Shown: positions 12,084-48,817 of the stretch, one piece after another
How the letters are laid out: the number at the start of each line of letters is the position of its first letter
How positions within the stretch are numbered: the first letter of the stretch is position 1
Sequence record: MK373784.1
Reading direction: 5' to 3' (one strand)
Length of the DNA stretch: 64,000 bases
Source: Escherichia phage vB_EcoM_MM02
Made by a program: the position numbers and the translations under genes
The notes under the pieces: model-generated
Database searches by the model: none
What the model was told of the DNA's origin: nothing
The model's input: the letters and a program-made list of their open reading frames with translations, nothing else

Positions 12084-12157
12084 TCTTTTTTCGTAAAATG
12101 CTTTAATTTTTTATGTGTTATAATGGTTCTGAGTTCCATCCGGTTATTCCAATTCAG

Positions 12158-14442: not shown

Positions 14443-14691
14443 TCATTCGCAGCTCCCTGAGCTTGAACCACAATCAGAATAACTTAACCCAGAATCACCA
14501 GGCCAAGACGATACGTATGAATGATTATAACTTGAAGAGCTTGAAGCATTAACCTGTTTTGTTTTTGGACGAACAACTTCTTCCATCATTCCGTCACCGA
14601 TATATTCCCAACTTTTTTCGTGTGTATCAGGAATAGGCATCATACCTTCGCCTGGTTTAACAGCAAACAACTTCTTCAGTATCGTAAGCAT
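14443..14691 (-). CDS. hypothetical protein (start trimmed to ATG with GAGGAA RBS)
   Basis: Track ORF 14443..14766; internal ATG at about 14691 has an RBS. Confidence 0.3.
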   Translation of the reverse strand: MLTILKKLFAVKPGEGMMPIPDTHEKSWEYIGDGMMEEVVRPKTKQVNASSSSSYNHSYVSSWPGDSGLSYSDCGSSSGSCE

Positions 14692-24415: not shown

Positions 24416-25315
24416 TTATTCCTCGATTACGACATCTTCATATTTAGGTATATTATACGGCGAAGAAATTAAAGCATTAAAGTAGATGAACTCACCAAGA
24501 CCTGGATGGAATACTTCTTCAGGATTTTCGAAATATTGAATCTTCGGACGTCCTTTAAGAATTTGATAGTACTCAGTTTTAGTTGGTTTAAAAATTCGAA
24601 TCAGCGCTTCTTCAGGATACTTATTTCTGTCGAAGCTATTATTTGGATCGGTTATATAAAGCGGTTGACCTAATTGAATTGCGCATTCAACAACTTGTTC
24701 AAAACGATAGCATGGGTCACTAATTCGAAATGGATGAAAAATACCATCTAGATAAATAGGAGCCAAATCACCTACAAGACGCTGCATGATGGAAGGACGT
24801 ATAACTTTCTGCGTTACGATAATCTTATTACCATCTGCACCTGCGTTAACCAGCACTTCTTTTTGACGTTCATTCAACACAGTAGTTTGAAGTGAACGAT
24901 TAACCGACAACATATCAGTTTTTAAGAATTCGTCAATATAAAAACGTGGTTTATTAGGGTCTGCAGTGATATTGAAATTGAATTCCACATCAAAAGCGCC
25001 GTCATATCCAGTGATATCTGTGATTAGAAAATCACAATCATAATAAGCAATTAATGAATCAACTACAAATTCATTTTCAGACCAGAAATATTTACGAGTG
25101 TTATACGCGTTATCTTTATACCATAATGGAACAAACTTAAATTCTGGAAAAAGACGTTCGCATTCTTTAATATCAGATGCATTACGTGGATATGTAATCA
25201 CATCACCCGGATTAGCACGGTGCAAATGAAGTTGGAAGTTGCCATCCTTAAGGATAGCATACTGTCCAGTTTCATAAGACCGCATACTCAAGATTGGTAC
25301 GCGGAAAATAGCCAT
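24416..25315 (-). CDS. hypothetical protein (beta-gt slot, no similarity recognised)
   Basis: 299 aa; translationally coupled with neighbours. Confidence 0.4.
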   Translation of the reverse strand: MAIFRVPILSMRSYETGQYAILKDGNFQLHLHRANPGDVITYPRNASDIKECERLFPEFKFVPLWYKDNAYNTRKYFWSENEFVVDSLIAYYDCDFLITDITGYDGAFDVEFNFNITADPNKPRFYIDEFLKTDMLSVNRSLQTTVLNERQKEVLVNAGADGNKIIVTQKVIRPSIMQRLVGDLAPIYLDGIFHPFRISDPCYRFEQVVECAIQLGQPLYITDPNNSFDRNKYPEEALIRIFKPTKTEYYQILKGRPKIQYFENPEEVFHPGLGEFIYFNALISSPYNIPKYEDVVIEE

Positions 25316-36626: not shown

Positions 36627-38315
36627 TTATGAAACAGTCATTACAGTAAATCGTCCAACTTTGCTCATTTGAAGATGTTGTCCATAAGCTTGTGGGTCAT
36701 GGTCTCTGTGACTAATTATAAACACGTTTGCATCGGTTAGAGAGTTAAGAATTGTTGAAATGGCTTTAATACCTTCGGAATCAGTCGCGGAATCCATGAC
36801 TTCGTCCATAATTAATGTATTGATTCTAACACCAGAGACCTTTTCAGCAATATCTCGCCACGTAAACAACAATGCGATATCGATACGCGCTTTTTCGCCT
36901 TGACTAAATGAAGCATAACTGAACTCTTCACGGCCACGTGATTTTATAGATTCATTGAATTCTTCATCAATAGAAAACACGTAATCGGCTTCCATGATTT
37001 TAAGATAATGGTTAATCTGCTTGTTGAACAGAGGCACATATTTTTTAATGATAGCACCTTTAATACCAGAATCTTTTAACATATCTGTGATAATACCACG
37101 ATGGTATTTTTCAAGAACGATATCTGATTTTGTTTTAATGATTTTATCAAGTTCTTTTTGAAGCAAAGCTATCTCATCGGCATGGTCGATAAATTCTGCT
37201 GAGGCTTGCTCTATTGCAGCTTTAACTTTCTTAGCTTTATCAATAGTGGCAATCATTGCTTGTTTCTTGGTACGAATATCAGATGCAAGGTCCTGTTTAG
37301 TCTTAACATTAGCTCTATATTCGTCCACTAGGACACTCAGGTTATCTCTGTGACATGTAAGTTGCTCGAATGAGTGATTACATTCGTGAAGCTTATCGGT
37401 AATCTTAGAGACAATAGGGTCACCCTGGTGCAACTGTGATGCGCAAGTAGGACATGTACCGCCATCGTGATACATCTTAATAACTTTGTTGTATGAGTCG
37501 ATTTTAGATTTAATCAAGAATGCTTCTTGTCCTATCTTGTTGAATGCCTCAGTAGGGTCTTCATCAAGAACGATATTAAGTAGTCGCTCATTAGCTTCTT
37601 CGATTTCTGCTTTTAATGAACGAGCTTCTTTGGCTAGGTCGTCATACATATTCTGTAGACGCGCTACATTATCACCAGATAATTTCTTTTGACGTTCGAT
37701 ATTCTCGTTATAAATCTTAATTTGTTGGATAACACCATCTTTCTTAGCATCGAGAACTTGTCCCTGGGAATTAAGTTCTCGAACTTGAGACTTATTGATT
37801 TTATCCATTTCAGCGAGTGTGCCGACTTCTAAAAGGTCTTCGACAAGTTTTCTACGAGCAGGGGTGCTAAGAGCCATGAAAGGGGTATACCCTGCCGTCC
37901 CAAGCACAACGATCTGTTTAAAAGACGCGTATGACATTCCGATGCTACGTTCAAATTCTTCTTGGAAGTCACGACTGCTGGCAGATTCATCGAGACGAAC
38001 ACCGTCAACGGAGATTTCGAAAATATTGGGCTTTTGGCCGCGTCTAATGAAGTATTTTTTATCATCGAATTCCATCCAAAGCTCAACTAAGAGCTCTTTC
38101 TTGTTCGTGCTATTAATGATTTGTCCTTTCTTAACATCACGAAATGGTTTACCGAAAAGTCCGAAAGTAATGGCTTCTAACATCGTAGATTTACCACCGC
38201 CATTTTTACCAGTGATTAATGTCTTTTGGACTTTATCTAATTGGATATCAATAGGATTCCCACCTACCGACATGATGTTTTGATAACGAACACGATTTAA
38301 TTTAAATGATTTCAT
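36627..38315 (-). CDS. 46: recombination endonuclease ATPase subunit (SbcC/Rad50-like), gene 46
   Basis: 562 aa; Walker A GKNGGGKST, long coiled-coil with CxxC zinc hook (CPTC), C-terminal signature/Walker B (LIMDEV). Confidence 0.9.
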   Translation of the reverse strand: MKSFKLNRVRYQNIMSVGGNPIDIQLDKVQKTLITGKNGGGKSTMLEAITFGLFGKPFRDVKKGQIINSTNKKELLVELWMEFDDKKYFIRRGQKPNIFEISVDGVRLDESASSRDFQEEFERSIGMSYASFKQIVVLGTAGYTPFMALSTPARRKLVEDLLEVGTLAEMDKINKSQVRELNSQGQVLDAKKDGVIQQIKIYNENIERQKKLSGDNVARLQNMYDDLAKEARSLKAEIEEANERLLNIVLDEDPTEAFNKIGQEAFLIKSKIDSYNKVIKMYHDGGTCPTCASQLHQGDPIVSKITDKLHECNHSFEQLTCHRDNLSVLVDEYRANVKTKQDLASDIRTKKQAMIATIDKAKKVKAAIEQASAEFIDHADEIALLQKELDKIIKTKSDIVLEKYHRGIITDMLKDSGIKGAIIKKYVPLFNKQINHYLKIMEADYVFSIDEEFNESIKSRGREEFSYASFSQGEKARIDIALLFTWRDIAEKVSGVRINTLIMDEVMDSATDSEGIKAISTILNSLTDANVFIISHRDHDPQAYGQHLQMSKVGRFTVMTVS

Positions 38316-44789: not shown

Positions 44790-45260
44790 TTAATCATGTT
44801 TCCACACCCCATCGCTATTTGACCAAAGTCGCTGATTATCTGATCCTCGCCAAAGCTTTTTAGTCGGAAGATTTTTCTCATACTTCCCATCAATAATAAC
44901 ATCAACATATTTAAGCATTTCTAGTTGTTTAATATCTTCAAACTTATATCCTGTCCACAACCAAATGCTTTTATTGGGATAAAGATTTTTTACTGTTTGA
45001 GCAATGCGATGAATAACATCTCGGTTATCAGGATAGAGAGGGTCTCCTCCGGTTATAGTTAATCCTTCTATATAATCATTATTCAAACATTCAATCAATT
45101 GTTCTAGTGTCTCTCCAGTGAATGGAGTACCATTTCTAGCATTCCATGTTGATTTATTATAACACCCTTCACATTTATGCAAACAACCTGTAACGAAAAG
45201 AACGACCCTGCATCCAGGGCCATTCACAAAATCGCAAGGATAAAATCTATCATAATTCAT
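44790..45260 (-). CDS. nrdG: anaerobic ribonucleotide reductase activating protein NrdG (radical SAM)
   Basis: 156 aa; CxxxCxxC in VTGCLHKCEGCYN. Confidence 0.85.
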   Translation of the reverse strand: MNYDRFYPCDFVNGPGCRVVLFVTGCLHKCEGCYNKSTWNARNGTPFTGETLEQLIECLNNDYIEGLTITGGDPLYPDNRDVIHRIAQTVKNLYPNKSIWLWTGYKFEDIKQLEMLKYVDVIIDGKYEKNLPTKKLWRGSDNQRLWSNSDGVWKHD

Positions 45261-47074
45261 TGGTGTTTAACCCTATGCATGATTTCTTTATTTTTACCGA
45301 GATTAAATCCGCGCTCGTTCGGATTTCCCAAATAGCCGCATGTTCTTCTTATAGTGTTCATCTTTTTAGGATCAGTTTCTCCACAAACTGAACAAACAAA
45401 TCCGTTTTCAGTAGGAGTCATCTCATGGGTACTTCCACATGTAAAACATTTATCTACTGGCATATTAACACCAAAATAATCTAAATGTTGTGCAGCATAA
45501 TCCCAGACAGCCTCGAGTCCCTTTAAATTGTTTTTCATATCAGGAAGTTCAACATAAGAAATGTGACCACCTGTCGCAATGAAATGATATGGCGCTTCAC
45601 GAGAAATCTTTTCAAACGGAGTAATATTTTCTTCTACTGAAACATGGAAACTATTAGTGTACCAGCCTTTATCGGTAACATCCTTTACATTTCCATATTT
45701 TTCTGTATCGAGTTTACAGAAGCGATAACAAAGGTTTTCAGCAGGAGTAGAATACAAACTAAAAGCAAATCCAGTTCTTTCGGACCACTGTTTAAGATGA
45801 GCATTCATTTTAGTTAAAATTTCTTGCCCAATATCACGACCGACAAGAATATTCAATTCGTGAATACCAATGTATCCTAAAGACACTGAACTTCTACCGT
45901 TTTTAAATAACTCAATTATGTCGTCATCAGGTTTAAGACGAACCCCGAATGCACCTTCTTGGTAAAGAATAGGAGCAACAGTAGCTTTAACTCCTTTTAA
46001 GGAACTAATTCTACACATCAAAGCTTCAAAACATAAATCCATTCGTTCATTGAATAATTCAACAAATTTCTGTTCGTTAAATTGCGTTCCAATATAAGAA
46101 TCTAACGCGATGCGAGGAAGATTCAATGTTACAACACCAAGATTATTGCGACCATCAAGAATTTCATTACCGGTCGAATCTTTCCATACGCTCAAGAAAC
46201 TACGGCAGCCCATTGGAGAAACAGGAACTGAAGAACCGGTAATAGCTTTATTATTCTTAACCGAAATAATGTCAGGATACATTCTTTTGCTTGCACATTC
46301 TAACGCAAGTTGTTTAATATCATAGTTCGGATCATCTTTATAAAGATTAACACCTTCTTCAACAAACATAACAAGTTTAGGAAAAATAGGAGTTATTCCA
46401 TCACGACCAAGACCTTTAATGCGGTTTTTAAGAATTGCCTTCTGAATCATTCGTTCGGTCCAGTCAGTTCCCGTACCAAATGTAATTGTTACAAAAGGCG
46501 TTTGTCCGTTTGAACTAAAGAGAGTATTTACTTCATATTCATAAGCTTGGAATGCATCGTATACATCTTTTTCTGTTTTGGATTGAGCATAATTCAACGC
46601 ATCAGCGATTTGCCATTTTTCTGCATCCTCAATATGTTTAGCGTATGTGCGTTTAACATAAGGAGAAAGAACTTTATCTACATTCGCAAATGTAGTTCCG
46701 CCATACTGGTGTGAAGCAACTTGTGCGGTAATTTGTGCCATAATTGCAGTAGCAACGCCAATAGATTTAGGCGTTTCAATTTGAGCATTGCCTAATTTAA
46801 ATCCATTCTCAAGCATTCCTTTTAAATCTACTAAACAGCAATTAGTAAAAGGCAATGATATACTGTAATCTAAATCATGAAAATGAATTAATCCAACATT
46901 ATGGGCATTTACAATATGACTTGGAAGAATACGACAAGCGATATGTTTAGAAACAATACCGGCCATTAAATCTCTTTTTGTTGGAAAGACACGAGAATCT
47001 TTGTTGGCGTTTTCGGTATTTAATTCTTTATCTTTATTTGAAATAAAATTTAAAACATCTTTCTCTAAAGACAT
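45257..47074 (-). CDS. nrdD: anaerobic ribonucleoside-triphosphate reductase NrdD (glycyl radical enzyme)
   Basis: 605 aa; C-terminal Zn site CFTCGS...CSVCG and glycyl-radical motif RRTCGYLG; uninterrupted. Confidence 0.9.
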   Translation of the reverse strand: MSLEKDVLNFISNKDKELNTENANKDSRVFPTKRDLMAGIVSKHIACRILPSHIVNAHNVGLIHFHDLDYSISLPFTNCCLVDLKGMLENGFKLGNAQIETPKSIGVATAIMAQITAQVASHQYGGTTFANVDKVLSPYVKRTYAKHIEDAEKWQIADALNYAQSKTEKDVYDAFQAYEYEVNTLFSSNGQTPFVTITFGTGTDWTERMIQKAILKNRIKGLGRDGITPIFPKLVMFVEEGVNLYKDDPNYDIKQLALECASKRMYPDIISVKNNKAITGSSVPVSPMGCRSFLSVWKDSTGNEILDGRNNLGVVTLNLPRIALDSYIGTQFNEQKFVELFNERMDLCFEALMCRISSLKGVKATVAPILYQEGAFGVRLKPDDDIIELFKNGRSSVSLGYIGIHELNILVGRDIGQEILTKMNAHLKQWSERTGFAFSLYSTPAENLCYRFCKLDTEKYGNVKDVTDKGWYTNSFHVSVEENITPFEKISREAPYHFIATGGHISYVELPDMKNNLKGLEAVWDYAAQHLDYFGVNMPVDKCFTCGSTHEMTPTENGFVCSVCGETDPKKMNTIRRTCGYLGNPNERGFNLGKNKEIMHRVKHQ

Positions 47075-47886
47075 AATTCTAATTTATCCTTTTGAAATTC
47101 TTCGTCTAAATATGGGTTCCAACCCATTTTAAACCTTTTGATGAAATTATCAATTCTAAATTTCGGTAAGTTTAAATCCGCAAAAATAGATGATTTACTT
47201 TTAAAATCTGGACCTAAATAATCATATAAAATTTCTGCGTATTTTAACCATAATATACAAGTACCGGATTTAATTGCGTTCGGAGTTTTCCAAGGTTTTA
47301 CACCATACATCGGATTTCCACTTCCTTTATGCCTGATAGAAGATGAAATTCCAATTTTAATTTTAGCTTCCTTTGTATGCGAAAATCCACGATGCGGATT
47401 TTCTTTCCAGTATTTTTTAGAAGCTTCTGATATTTTCTTTCTGGCTAAATTAGTATGATGCTTTCCATAAAATCCATTATTTTTGCCTTTATTACGATTT
47501 CTTTTAATCATGGTTATTGATTGCTTTTCTCTAGTTTCTTTAGAAGGAGAAATACCATATGTCGTAAATTTGCCATCAGCATATGCTAAATTAAAATACT
47601 CTTTATTCCATACATCTTTTTCTATATTCTTTTGAAATTCAGCTTCAATGCTAGTTATTTGTTCATCTCCGACTAATTGAAAATATAATATTTCAACTTT
47701 CGGCGTTTCTTTCAATAAGGCTTTTTGAAATTCGGAAGATGACGAAGACGAATAATAAAATTTACCATTTTTATCAATAATATTCGTTCCATCAAAAGTG
47801 CAATTGGTTTTACTTCCAATGTAATAATATGGTGGGGTTTTAGCATTAATTCTATTAATAAATGATAGTTTATATACTACATTCAT
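47065..47886 (-). mobile_element. free-standing GIY-YIG homing endonuclease gene (Seg/I-TevI-like) with NUMOD3 repeats
   Basis: 273 aa; GIY-YIG core VYKLSF...PPYYYIGSKTN; NUMOD3-like repeats GKHHTNLARKKISEA, SHTKEAKIKIG; overlaps nrdD start by 10 nt. Confidence 0.7.
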
Positions 47887-48356
47887 TTTAAACTCTTTCT
47901 AAGCTGCTTTTTGAATGAAGCTATTAATTGTGTTTTAGTATCAGATTCATTATATTCAAATCCTCTTTGAAGCATCTCAGCCATCATTTCCTCTTTACCT
48001 AGTCTTGAGAACTCTTTAGTTTTGTCTGGAACAAAATTAGGATGGATATTATTATCAGAATAATCTTGTTTCAAATAAGCAAGAAGAGCTTCAAGCCATT
48101 CGAGGTAATCAACGTTTTTACCTTTAAGACCAGAACGGTTGAACTTATGCTTCATTTGGCCTTCTGCTGCGTTGCACAGAGAACAGAGTAACCCACGAAC
48201 TCTACCGGCTTTTGGCCCGTTTAATTCGTGGTCGTGGTCAAGATGGTTACCTTGAACATCAGGGTCTAATTCACGGTGGCAAATAGGACACTTACCATTC
48301 TGTGCATCATAAAATTTTTGTTTTTCTTCTTTATATTTTGCGCCTGATAATAACAT
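47883..48356 (-). CDS. 49: endonuclease VII (Holliday-junction resolvase), gene 49
   Basis: 157 aa; CPICHRELDPD...HLDHDHELNGPKAGRVRGLLCSLCNAAEG matches my memory of T4 endo VII. Confidence 0.9.
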   Translation of the reverse strand: MLLSGAKYKEEKQKFYDAQNGKCPICHRELDPDVQGNHLDHDHELNGPKAGRVRGLLCSLCNAAEGQMKHKFNRSGLKGKNVDYLEWLEALLAYLKQDYSDNNIHPNFVPDKTKEFSRLGKEEMMAEMLQRGFEYNESDTKTQLIASFKKQLRKSLK

Positions 48357-48391
48357 GATAAACCCTTACCTTAAATAGATAAGGGTATTTA

Positions 48392-48817
48392 TTAACTTAA
48401 ACGTCTTTCTAAATATTCAATGTATTCTGCGGCTGCTTGCATCAGGTTACCTTCATAGCCGTCGTTATTTTCTTGTCCGGCTAATTTAGCTAATGCATAA
48501 GAAATTCGTTCACCTTCGAATTCACCAAGTTTACTACCTAGCACATCCGCAATATCAGCCGAATCAATTTCTTCGAGTTCATCTATTGAATGGGATTCCC
48601 AGAAGCACCAAAGAGAAGTATCACGGTCATAGATGCAAAGTTTCTCACCTGTGTTCAACATCACTTCAATAATGCCATGGTCGCCATAACCATCTTCGGT
48701 AGTAGTACCAATTACCTTGATGATCGTATCTTTCTTTAATTCAGGAAACTTGACTTGTAGTTCTTCATCTTCTTTAACAATCTTGAACCATTTACCGCGA
48801 GTTTCAGAAATATTCAT
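48392..48817 (-). CDS. hypothetical acidic protein
   Basis: 141-aa ORF. Confidence 0.4.
   Translation of the reverse strand: MNISETRGKWFKIVKEDEELQVKFPELKKDTIIKVIGTTTEDGYGDHGIIEVMLNTGEKLCIYDRDTSLWCFWESHSIDELEEIDSADIADVLGSKLGEFEGERISYALAKLAGQENNDGYEGNLMQAAAEYIEYLERRLS

Follow-up and report, generated by a model that had tools for sequence, protein, structure and literature searches.

We analysed a window of 64,000 nucleotides (nt) of Escherichia phage vB_EcoM_MM02 (sequence record MK373784.1), a T4-like phage of the genus Mosigvirus, and describe here a free-standing homing endonuclease gene (HEG) that lies between gene 49 and nrdD. All positions are those of the whole window, and the HEG, its two neighbors and the features within them are on the minus strand. 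The HEG is an open reading frame (ORF) of 273 amino acids (aa) with an ATG start (47065-47886). It is flanked upstream by gene 49, which encodes endonuclease VII (47883-48356; Pfam Endonuclease_7 and Endonuc-dimeris), and downstream by nrdD, the gene for the large subunit of the anaerobic ribonucleotide reductase and the probable target gene (45257-47074). NrdD is an uninterrupted protein of 605 aa (Pfam NRDD, PF13597, E = 3.6e-171), and the length of its gene (1,818 nt) is the same as in relatives that lack the HEG; nrdG (44790-45260) follows directly and overlaps it. An earlier note on this DNA, made by reading the sequence, had claimed a 273-aa ORF between gene 49 and nrdD, an overlap of 10 nt between its 3' end and the nrdD start, and an nrdD without an intron. 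All of this holds: the ORF call and the Pfam assignment of the flanks agree with it, the overlap is exactly 10 nt (47065-47074), and NrdD is unbroken. The closest record is Escherichia phage 55, with 98.7% identity over a 1.9-kb query covering the ORF and its flanks (46500-48400).

Both ends of the HEG are joined to their neighbors by overlaps. At the upstream end the sequence ATGA (47883-47886) combines the stop codon of gene 49 (TGA) with the start codon of the HEG (ATG), and at the downstream end nrdD starts 7 nt upstream of the HEG stop codon. Among HEG-less phages of the two genera concerned here, Mosigvirus and Tequatrovirus (EP32B, p000v, moha, RB51 and T4), the same ATGA combines the gene 49 stop with the start of nrdD; in carriers, the ATG of the HEG sits exactly at the place that nrdD uses in these phages. 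The sequence upstream of it, including an AAGAG ribosome-binding stretch, is unchanged between carriers and HEG-less phages (in the latter it precedes nrdD). Farther upstream, in the 3' end of gene 49 and 63 nt from the HEG ATG, is a match to the MotA-type middle promoter (TGCTTCA-N13-TATAAT; 47949-47974). T4 and HEG-less Mosigviruses share this sequence without a change, and in them it stands in front of nrdD. By analogy with the T4 middle-promoter consensus, we regard this match as a putative promoter; the window has 14 instances of the pattern TGCTTYA-N11-13-TANNNT, most of them on the minus strand, as compared with 1.5 expected by chance. Near the HEG, no exact T4 late promoter (TATAAATA) and no intrinsic terminator were found, sigma-70-like promoter matches were not above chance, and RNA folding at the HEG start and the nrdD start was not significant (z scores of -0.21 and -1.70, respectively), and we claim no regulatory hairpin. 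Judged from this arrangement, the insertion of the HEG appears to have separated nrdD from its own expression signals. Because it occupies the start place of nrdD, downstream of the MotA-type match, the HEG is probably expressed within the 49-nrdD-nrdG message. The other MotA-type matches in the window (for example, at 12099-12124, 14524-14548, 24452-24476 and 37141-37165) could be used to map candidate middle promoters of this phage.

The HEG protein matches PHROG 7504 ('homing endonuclease', E = 1.2e-33), and its best characterized relative is T4 SegG (40% identity over aa 1-126, E = 4e-27). Three parts can be distinguished: an N-terminal nuclease domain of the SegG-type GIY-YIG kind (aa 1 to about 105, 47572-47886), with Y5, Y22, G24, E81 and N99 as its motif residues; a linker (47329-47499) in which two DNA-binding motifs of the NUMOD3 type occupy aa 130-153 and about 166-186; and a C-terminal domain (aa about 196-273, 47068-47301) that ends in K.F..GWNP.LD.EF and is presumed to be a sequence-specific DNA-binding module. 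We aligned 31 family sequences, some of them positive for the Pfam GIY-YIG model (PF01541); the alignment shows no variation at E81 or N99 and at least 90% conservation at Y22 and G24. The profile of this alignment matches the catalytic domain of I-TevI (1LN0, E = 0.0027), with the YIG motif, Glu75 and Asn90 paired, as well as the DNA-binding domain of I-TevI (1I3J, E = 9.5e-6). An AlphaFold model of the protein is confident over aa 1-100, and the nuclease domain has the GIY-YIG alpha/beta fold. The first NUMOD3 motif (PF07460) scores 29.4 bits in Pfam against a cut-off of 20.4 (E = 7.5e-7), and the second lines up with the NUMOD3 columns of the alignment; two NUMOD3 stretches are also reported for the copy in phage FL18. 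The GIY-YIG core and the NUMOD3-type repeats that the earlier note had read from the sequence are thus borne out, the former by the SegG identity and the match to 1LN0, the latter by one motif above the Pfam cut-off and one placed by alignment columns.

The C-terminal domain (the last 75 or so residues) is common to two metagenomic relatives, P0002 (61% identity) and P0004 (39% identity). A profile of three sequences aligns with the C-terminus of T4 SegG over 31 columns (hhalign probability 74%, E = 2.9e-5), and a BLASTP comparison of this domain with the SegG C-terminus gives no match. Two further comparisons are weak, namely a TIGR01453 match (E = 1.2e-4) that is below the cut-off of that model and the matches from a single-sequence search of the PDB. 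The description that fits the protein best is therefore a paralogue of SegG in which the linker is longer and contains NUMOD3 motifs. As a separate observation, an ENA contig of 90.8 kb (NODE_202; L013, 4001-4822) encodes another 273-aa protein with a SegG-type nuclease domain, 56% identical over the N-terminal half and different in its C-terminal part. Its gene is in a T4-like phage and is flanked by the gp5 and 5.1-like baseplate genes; it exemplifies one nuclease domain carrying different DNA-binding tails at different sites.

We searched 50,697 phage records, of which 876 match the flanks of the HEG. The HEG together with the adjacent nrdD start is present in 48 of them, in copies that are 96-99.7% identical, and a scan of IMG/VR added only two further near-identical copies. 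A query of 401 nt, taken across the uninterrupted 49/nrdD junction in EP32B (a Mosigvirus without the HEG), was matched in one piece by 631 records, and carriers make up about 7% of the phages that have the 49/nrdD junction. The polymorphism for which the earlier note had proposed to look is clearly present, and empty sites are the rule among relatives; the case that the note had named as a refutation, with the gene at this junction in every relative, does not apply. Carriers occur in Mosigvirus (phage 55, JK42, ST0 and the phage of the window) and in Tequatrovirus (Lutter, TadeuszReichstein, FL08 and PD112), and the HEG sequences are not sorted by genus: copies across the two genera differ by 3 to 30 nt (for example, 3 nt between the Mosigvirus JK42 and the Tequatrovirus FL08, and 7 nt between the window and TadeuszReichstein), and those of the window and JK42, both Mosigviruses, differ by 27 nt. 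The body of gene 49, in the same genomes, is genus-specific, with 68-85% identity between genera. A near-identical HEG in two genera next to a genus-specific gene 49 points to horizontal movement, in keeping with the mobile insertion that had been proposed.

All nine HEG copies that we examined have an intact ORF of 273 codons, with ratios of nonsynonymous to synonymous polymorphism (pN/pS) of 0.06-0.36, and none of the 16 residues that vary among them is a motif residue. The whole ORF therefore bears the sequence signature of purifying selection, and the loss of catalytic residues, which the earlier note had named as evidence that would count against an endonuclease, is not seen. Annotation of the gene is uneven. 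Many GenBank records label the ORF 'homing endonuclease', and the JK42 record reads 'SegG homing endonuclease', a label that, given 40% identity and a different site, reflects homology and not orthology. Phage ST0 (NC_041990.1; L019, 931-1752) has an intact HEG ORF of 273 codons, yet its RefSeq record annotates no gene there, and in the record of phage Killian the neighboring nrdD is labeled 'endolysin'.

The HEG is accompanied by a distinct allele of the nrdD 5' end. Over the first 222 nt of nrdD (46853-47074), carriers of both genera are 96-100% identical to each other and 53-78% identical to the HEG-less allele; the latter shows 90-100% conservation from one genus to the other. Fixed differences extend as far as nrdD nt 222, and beyond about nt 225 the genomes are mosaic in the ordinary way. 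This recoded tract is found at an identity of at least 95% in only 49 records, and a combined query links it to the HEG in the 48 carrier records, with phages OLB35 and FL18 as the exceptions. A search for a donor of the tract reached at most about 74-75% identity in phage records other than those of the carriers. On the other side of the HEG, gene 49 is 92-100% identical among all of the phages compared over its last 115 nt or so (47883-47997; the last two 60-nt bins), as against 66-85% between genera over the rest of the gene. The same stretch of gene 49 contains the MotA-type match and the ribosome-binding site used by nrdD or by the HEG, and its conservation could have either function or repeated gene conversion as its cause.

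From these boundaries, the transferable unit is, as we read it, the HEG together with the recoded start of nrdD (1.03 kb or so in all), situated between two arms of homology that allow crossovers. Free-standing endonucleases of T4 are known to cut at a distance within a neighboring gene and to co-convert the flanks (PMC2988022). The recoded tract is likely to be an immunity allele, resistant to cleavage and moved with the HEG, and we consider it rather probable that the target of the HEG lies within the first 225 nt or so of the HEG-less nrdD. The earlier note had placed the probable target in the nrdD/49 region; the strict linkage of the recoded tract is consistent with this and suggests the first 222 nt or so of nrdD. 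Within it, a candidate for the core of the target is nrdD nt 91-110 or thereabouts (CCAACTCAACGGGACCTTATGG; 46965-46984), where the window has the changed version ACAAAAAGAGAT. The HEG-less alleles, including a remnant in the metagenomic contig L012 described below, agree on ACTCARCGGGAC, and every HEG-linked allele departs from it; two independent HEG-linked alleles, those of the window and of L012, read ACAAAAMGAGAT. Most of the changes in the HEG-linked alleles are synonymous, and they lie within a protein motif that is conserved. We offer this core as a candidate, that is, as a lead.

Natural variants of the locus include deleted, truncated and more distant forms, which are compatible with the life cycle of a HEG. 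In OLB35 (Mosigvirus, MH992122.1; L009, 2700-2740) the HEG is absent and the recoded nrdD tract is kept; its NrdD begins with MNVVYKL, the first seven codons of the HEG, which continue in frame into codon 8 of nrdD. This looks like the scar of a HEG deletion that has left a presumably immune empty site. In FL18 (PP400780.1; L010, 1614-3105) the HEG is truncated after about codon 201 and joined to the last 25 or so codons of nrdD by a deletion that runs across a 13-nt microhomology, so that the whole nrdD gene is gone; the resulting chimeric ORF of 222 aa lies directly upstream of an intact gene for a 276-aa endonuclease at the nrdG junction. The contig L012 (Logan, SRR27536177; 2188-3300) comes from a more distant T4-like phage and has, at the same 49/nrdD position, a HEG homologue of 58% identity with an apparent frameshift near codon 47, which may be an assembly error. 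Stranded between gene 49 and this HEG are 55 codons left over from the 5' end of the resident nrdD, and the 5' end of the complete nrdD downstream is 72% identical to the HEG-linked allele of the window, as compared with 64% to the HEG-less allele. The remnant is an independent indication that the element enters at the nrdD 5' region.

We think it highly probable that the ORF, a paralogue of segG of greater length, is a functional, mobile and free-standing homing endonuclease gene of the GIY-YIG kind. In the mechanism that we propose, the HEG would have taken over the start place of nrdD, the same ATGA overlap and ribosome-binding site now serving the HEG ATG, and would be translated by coupling to gene 49. 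In a mixed infection, its protein would bind and cut the nrdD 5' region of a co-infecting HEG-less phage of the T-even type, with the NUMOD3-bearing linker and the C-terminal domain that resembles SegG used for binding and the N-terminal GIY-YIG domain for cutting. The break would then be repaired with the carrier genome as the template, with crossovers in the conserved last 115 nt or so of gene 49 and in nrdD past about nt 225. Crossovers at these positions imply that the HEG and the recoded first 222 nt or so of nrdD would be copied in together, and the recoded tract would protect carriers from their own enzyme.

Several observations weigh against this interpretation. The Pfam GIY-YIG model (PF01541) gives no match to the HEG protein at E ≤ 0.1; T4 SegG is likewise unmatched, and the missing match is thus a limit of the coverage of the model and not counter-evidence on the family. 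There is no arginine at the position that aligns with R27 of I-TevI, in a region that holds a SegG-type insertion; SegG also has no arginine there, and PMC2988022 (Table 1) records it among the active GIY-YIG homing endonucleases, with gene 32 as its target. Confidence of the AlphaFold model is low in the C-terminal domain, a Foldseek search with the model returned no significant E values, and the similarity of the C-terminal domain to SegG is weak. As for the target, it is placed from linkage alone, and the recoded tract could be donor sequence that has hitch-hiked with the HEG. Two of the informative variants also have limits as records, OLB35 being an UNVERIFIED GenBank entry and L012 a single metagenomic contig.

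The hitch-hiking of the tract is central to one alternative, in which an active HEG targets either the 49/nrdD junction proper or the gene 49 3' end, a site that the insertion destroys; the recoded tract would then be donor DNA carried along and too diverged for internal crossovers. The insertion does alter the junction sequence, the last 115 nt or so of gene 49 and the nrdD 5' end form an island that is conserved across genera in HEG-less phages, and a tract that shares just 53-78% identity with the resident allele would seldom have crossovers within it, irrespective of what it does. The difficulty is that the gene 49 3' end is 92-100% identical in carriers and non-carriers alike, so that a site situated wholly within it would leave carriers open to cutting. 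Cleavage at a distance inside a neighboring gene is, in addition, the habit of the characterized free-standing T4 endonucleases (PMC2988022), and the two independent HEG-linked alleles of the window and L012 share mostly synonymous changes in an otherwise conserved motif. We consider a junction target improbable. Still less probable, in our estimate to the point of being very unlikely, is that the HEG is an inactive or domesticated remnant, kept for the nrdD translation start in its 3' end or for some other DNA-binding role. Such a reading could draw on the position of the nrdD start codon and its upstream region within the HEG ORF, which resembles the promoters embedded in T4 seg genes (PMC2988022), and on the failure to find an equivalent of R27. 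It fits poorly with purifying selection over the whole ORF and unvarying catalytic-motif residues, with near-identical copies in two genera, which imply recent transfer, and with the clean loss of the HEG in OLB35, where nrdD is intact and retention is evidently not forced.

With an active endonuclease that targets the nrdD 5' region as the preferred reading, the element can be set beside the known endonucleases of T-even phages. The gene for T4 SegG lies between genes 59 and 32, and its target is gene 32 (PMC2988022). Common to SegG and the HEG protein are the nuclease-domain motifs MNxVY...PPYYYIGSK...IEAE...YFNL and, probably, the C-terminal motif K.F..GW.P..D.E; both genes are free-standing, co-oriented with their neighbors and apparently without a promoter of their own, and both are directly upstream of the gene that is targeted (SegG) or presumably targeted (the HEG). 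The HEG protein differs in its length (273 aa as compared with 210 aa), with about 70 extra residues in the linker that include the two NUMOD3 motifs, and its gene differs in its site (49/nrdD instead of 59/32), in its presumed target (nrdD) and in overlapping both neighbors. Orthology with SegG is ruled out by the site and by the 40% identity, and the SegG-like matches beside the helicase-loader gene are separate loci, about 40% identical to the HEG. The 'intronless homing' of T4 SegF, a free-standing endonuclease at the soc/56 site (Belle et al. 2002, as summarized in PMC2988022), is similar in that its spread carries flanking markers and carriers have a diverged neighboring target gene; the protein and the site (soc/56) are different, and co-conversion at the 49/nrdD site is deduced from comparative genomics.

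Other T4 endonucleases are associated with nrdD itself. The T4 catalogue places mobC, and segH replacing it, at the nrdG/nrdD junction and I-TevII in the nrdD intron, and lists nothing at 49/nrdD (PMC2988022). SegH and mobC resemble the HEG in being free-standing endonuclease genes next to nrdD in T-even phages (PMC2988022, Table 1); they are at the other end of nrdD, and the nrdG/nrdD junction of the window (45257-45260) holds no insertion (for SegH, the comparison is one of location). The different junction (49/nrdD versus nrdG/nrdD) rules out identity with either of them. In phages moha, TadeuszReichstein and FL18, the nrdG/nrdD junction holds a gene for a different GIY-YIG/NUMOD3 endonuclease of 276-279 aa (L006, 922-1761; L008, 935-1765), and the 276-aa protein has weak matches to SegE_GIY-YIG and I-TevI_DNA-bd. 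With HEGs at both 49/nrdD and nrdG/nrdD, nrdD can be flanked by endonuclease genes on both sides. I-TevII is also a GIY-YIG enzyme with nrdD as its home, but it is encoded by an intron far inside the gene, whereas the nrdD of the window is intronless. I-TevI, from the td intron, is more distant: the HEG is not in an intron, and its protein is about 20% identical to I-TevI, carries extra residues where the YIG strand leads to helix 1, lacks the R27-aligned arginine and has a different C-terminal domain. The NUMOD3 motif in its linker is a likeness to the modular endonucleases of the I-TevI type. We searched the literature for an endonuclease at 49/nrdD and found no paper, in a search whose coverage was incomplete, so that this absence is not proof.

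A stronger proposal is tentative, and we regard it as doubtful: that the locus is a natural 'cleave-and-rescue' cassette, in which the HEG is welded by the 10-nt overlap to a recoded, cleavage-resistant nrdD 5' segment and has captured the promoter, ribosome-binding site and start codon of nrdD, making nrdD expression dependent on translation through the HEG. If this were true, spread, self-immunity and the expression of a host gene would be coupled in one module of about 1.03 kb that crosses genus boundaries, and the decay series of OLB35, FL18 and L012 would provide ready-made genetic controls.

Many phages of Mosigvirus and Tequatrovirus are used in phage therapy collections. The 49/nrdD element is ordinary in concept and changes no concept, and the comparative picture that surrounds it is unusually clean, with an exact empty site, a tract bounded at 222 nt, two genera, and natural forms with a deletion, a truncation or a remnant. 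To the repertoire of T-even homing endonucleases it contributes a well-delimited and apparently uncharacterized member, at a site (49/nrdD) outside the T4 catalogue, and it should be a convenient system in which to map a SegG-type recognition site and to follow marker exclusion between Mosigvirus and Tequatrovirus.

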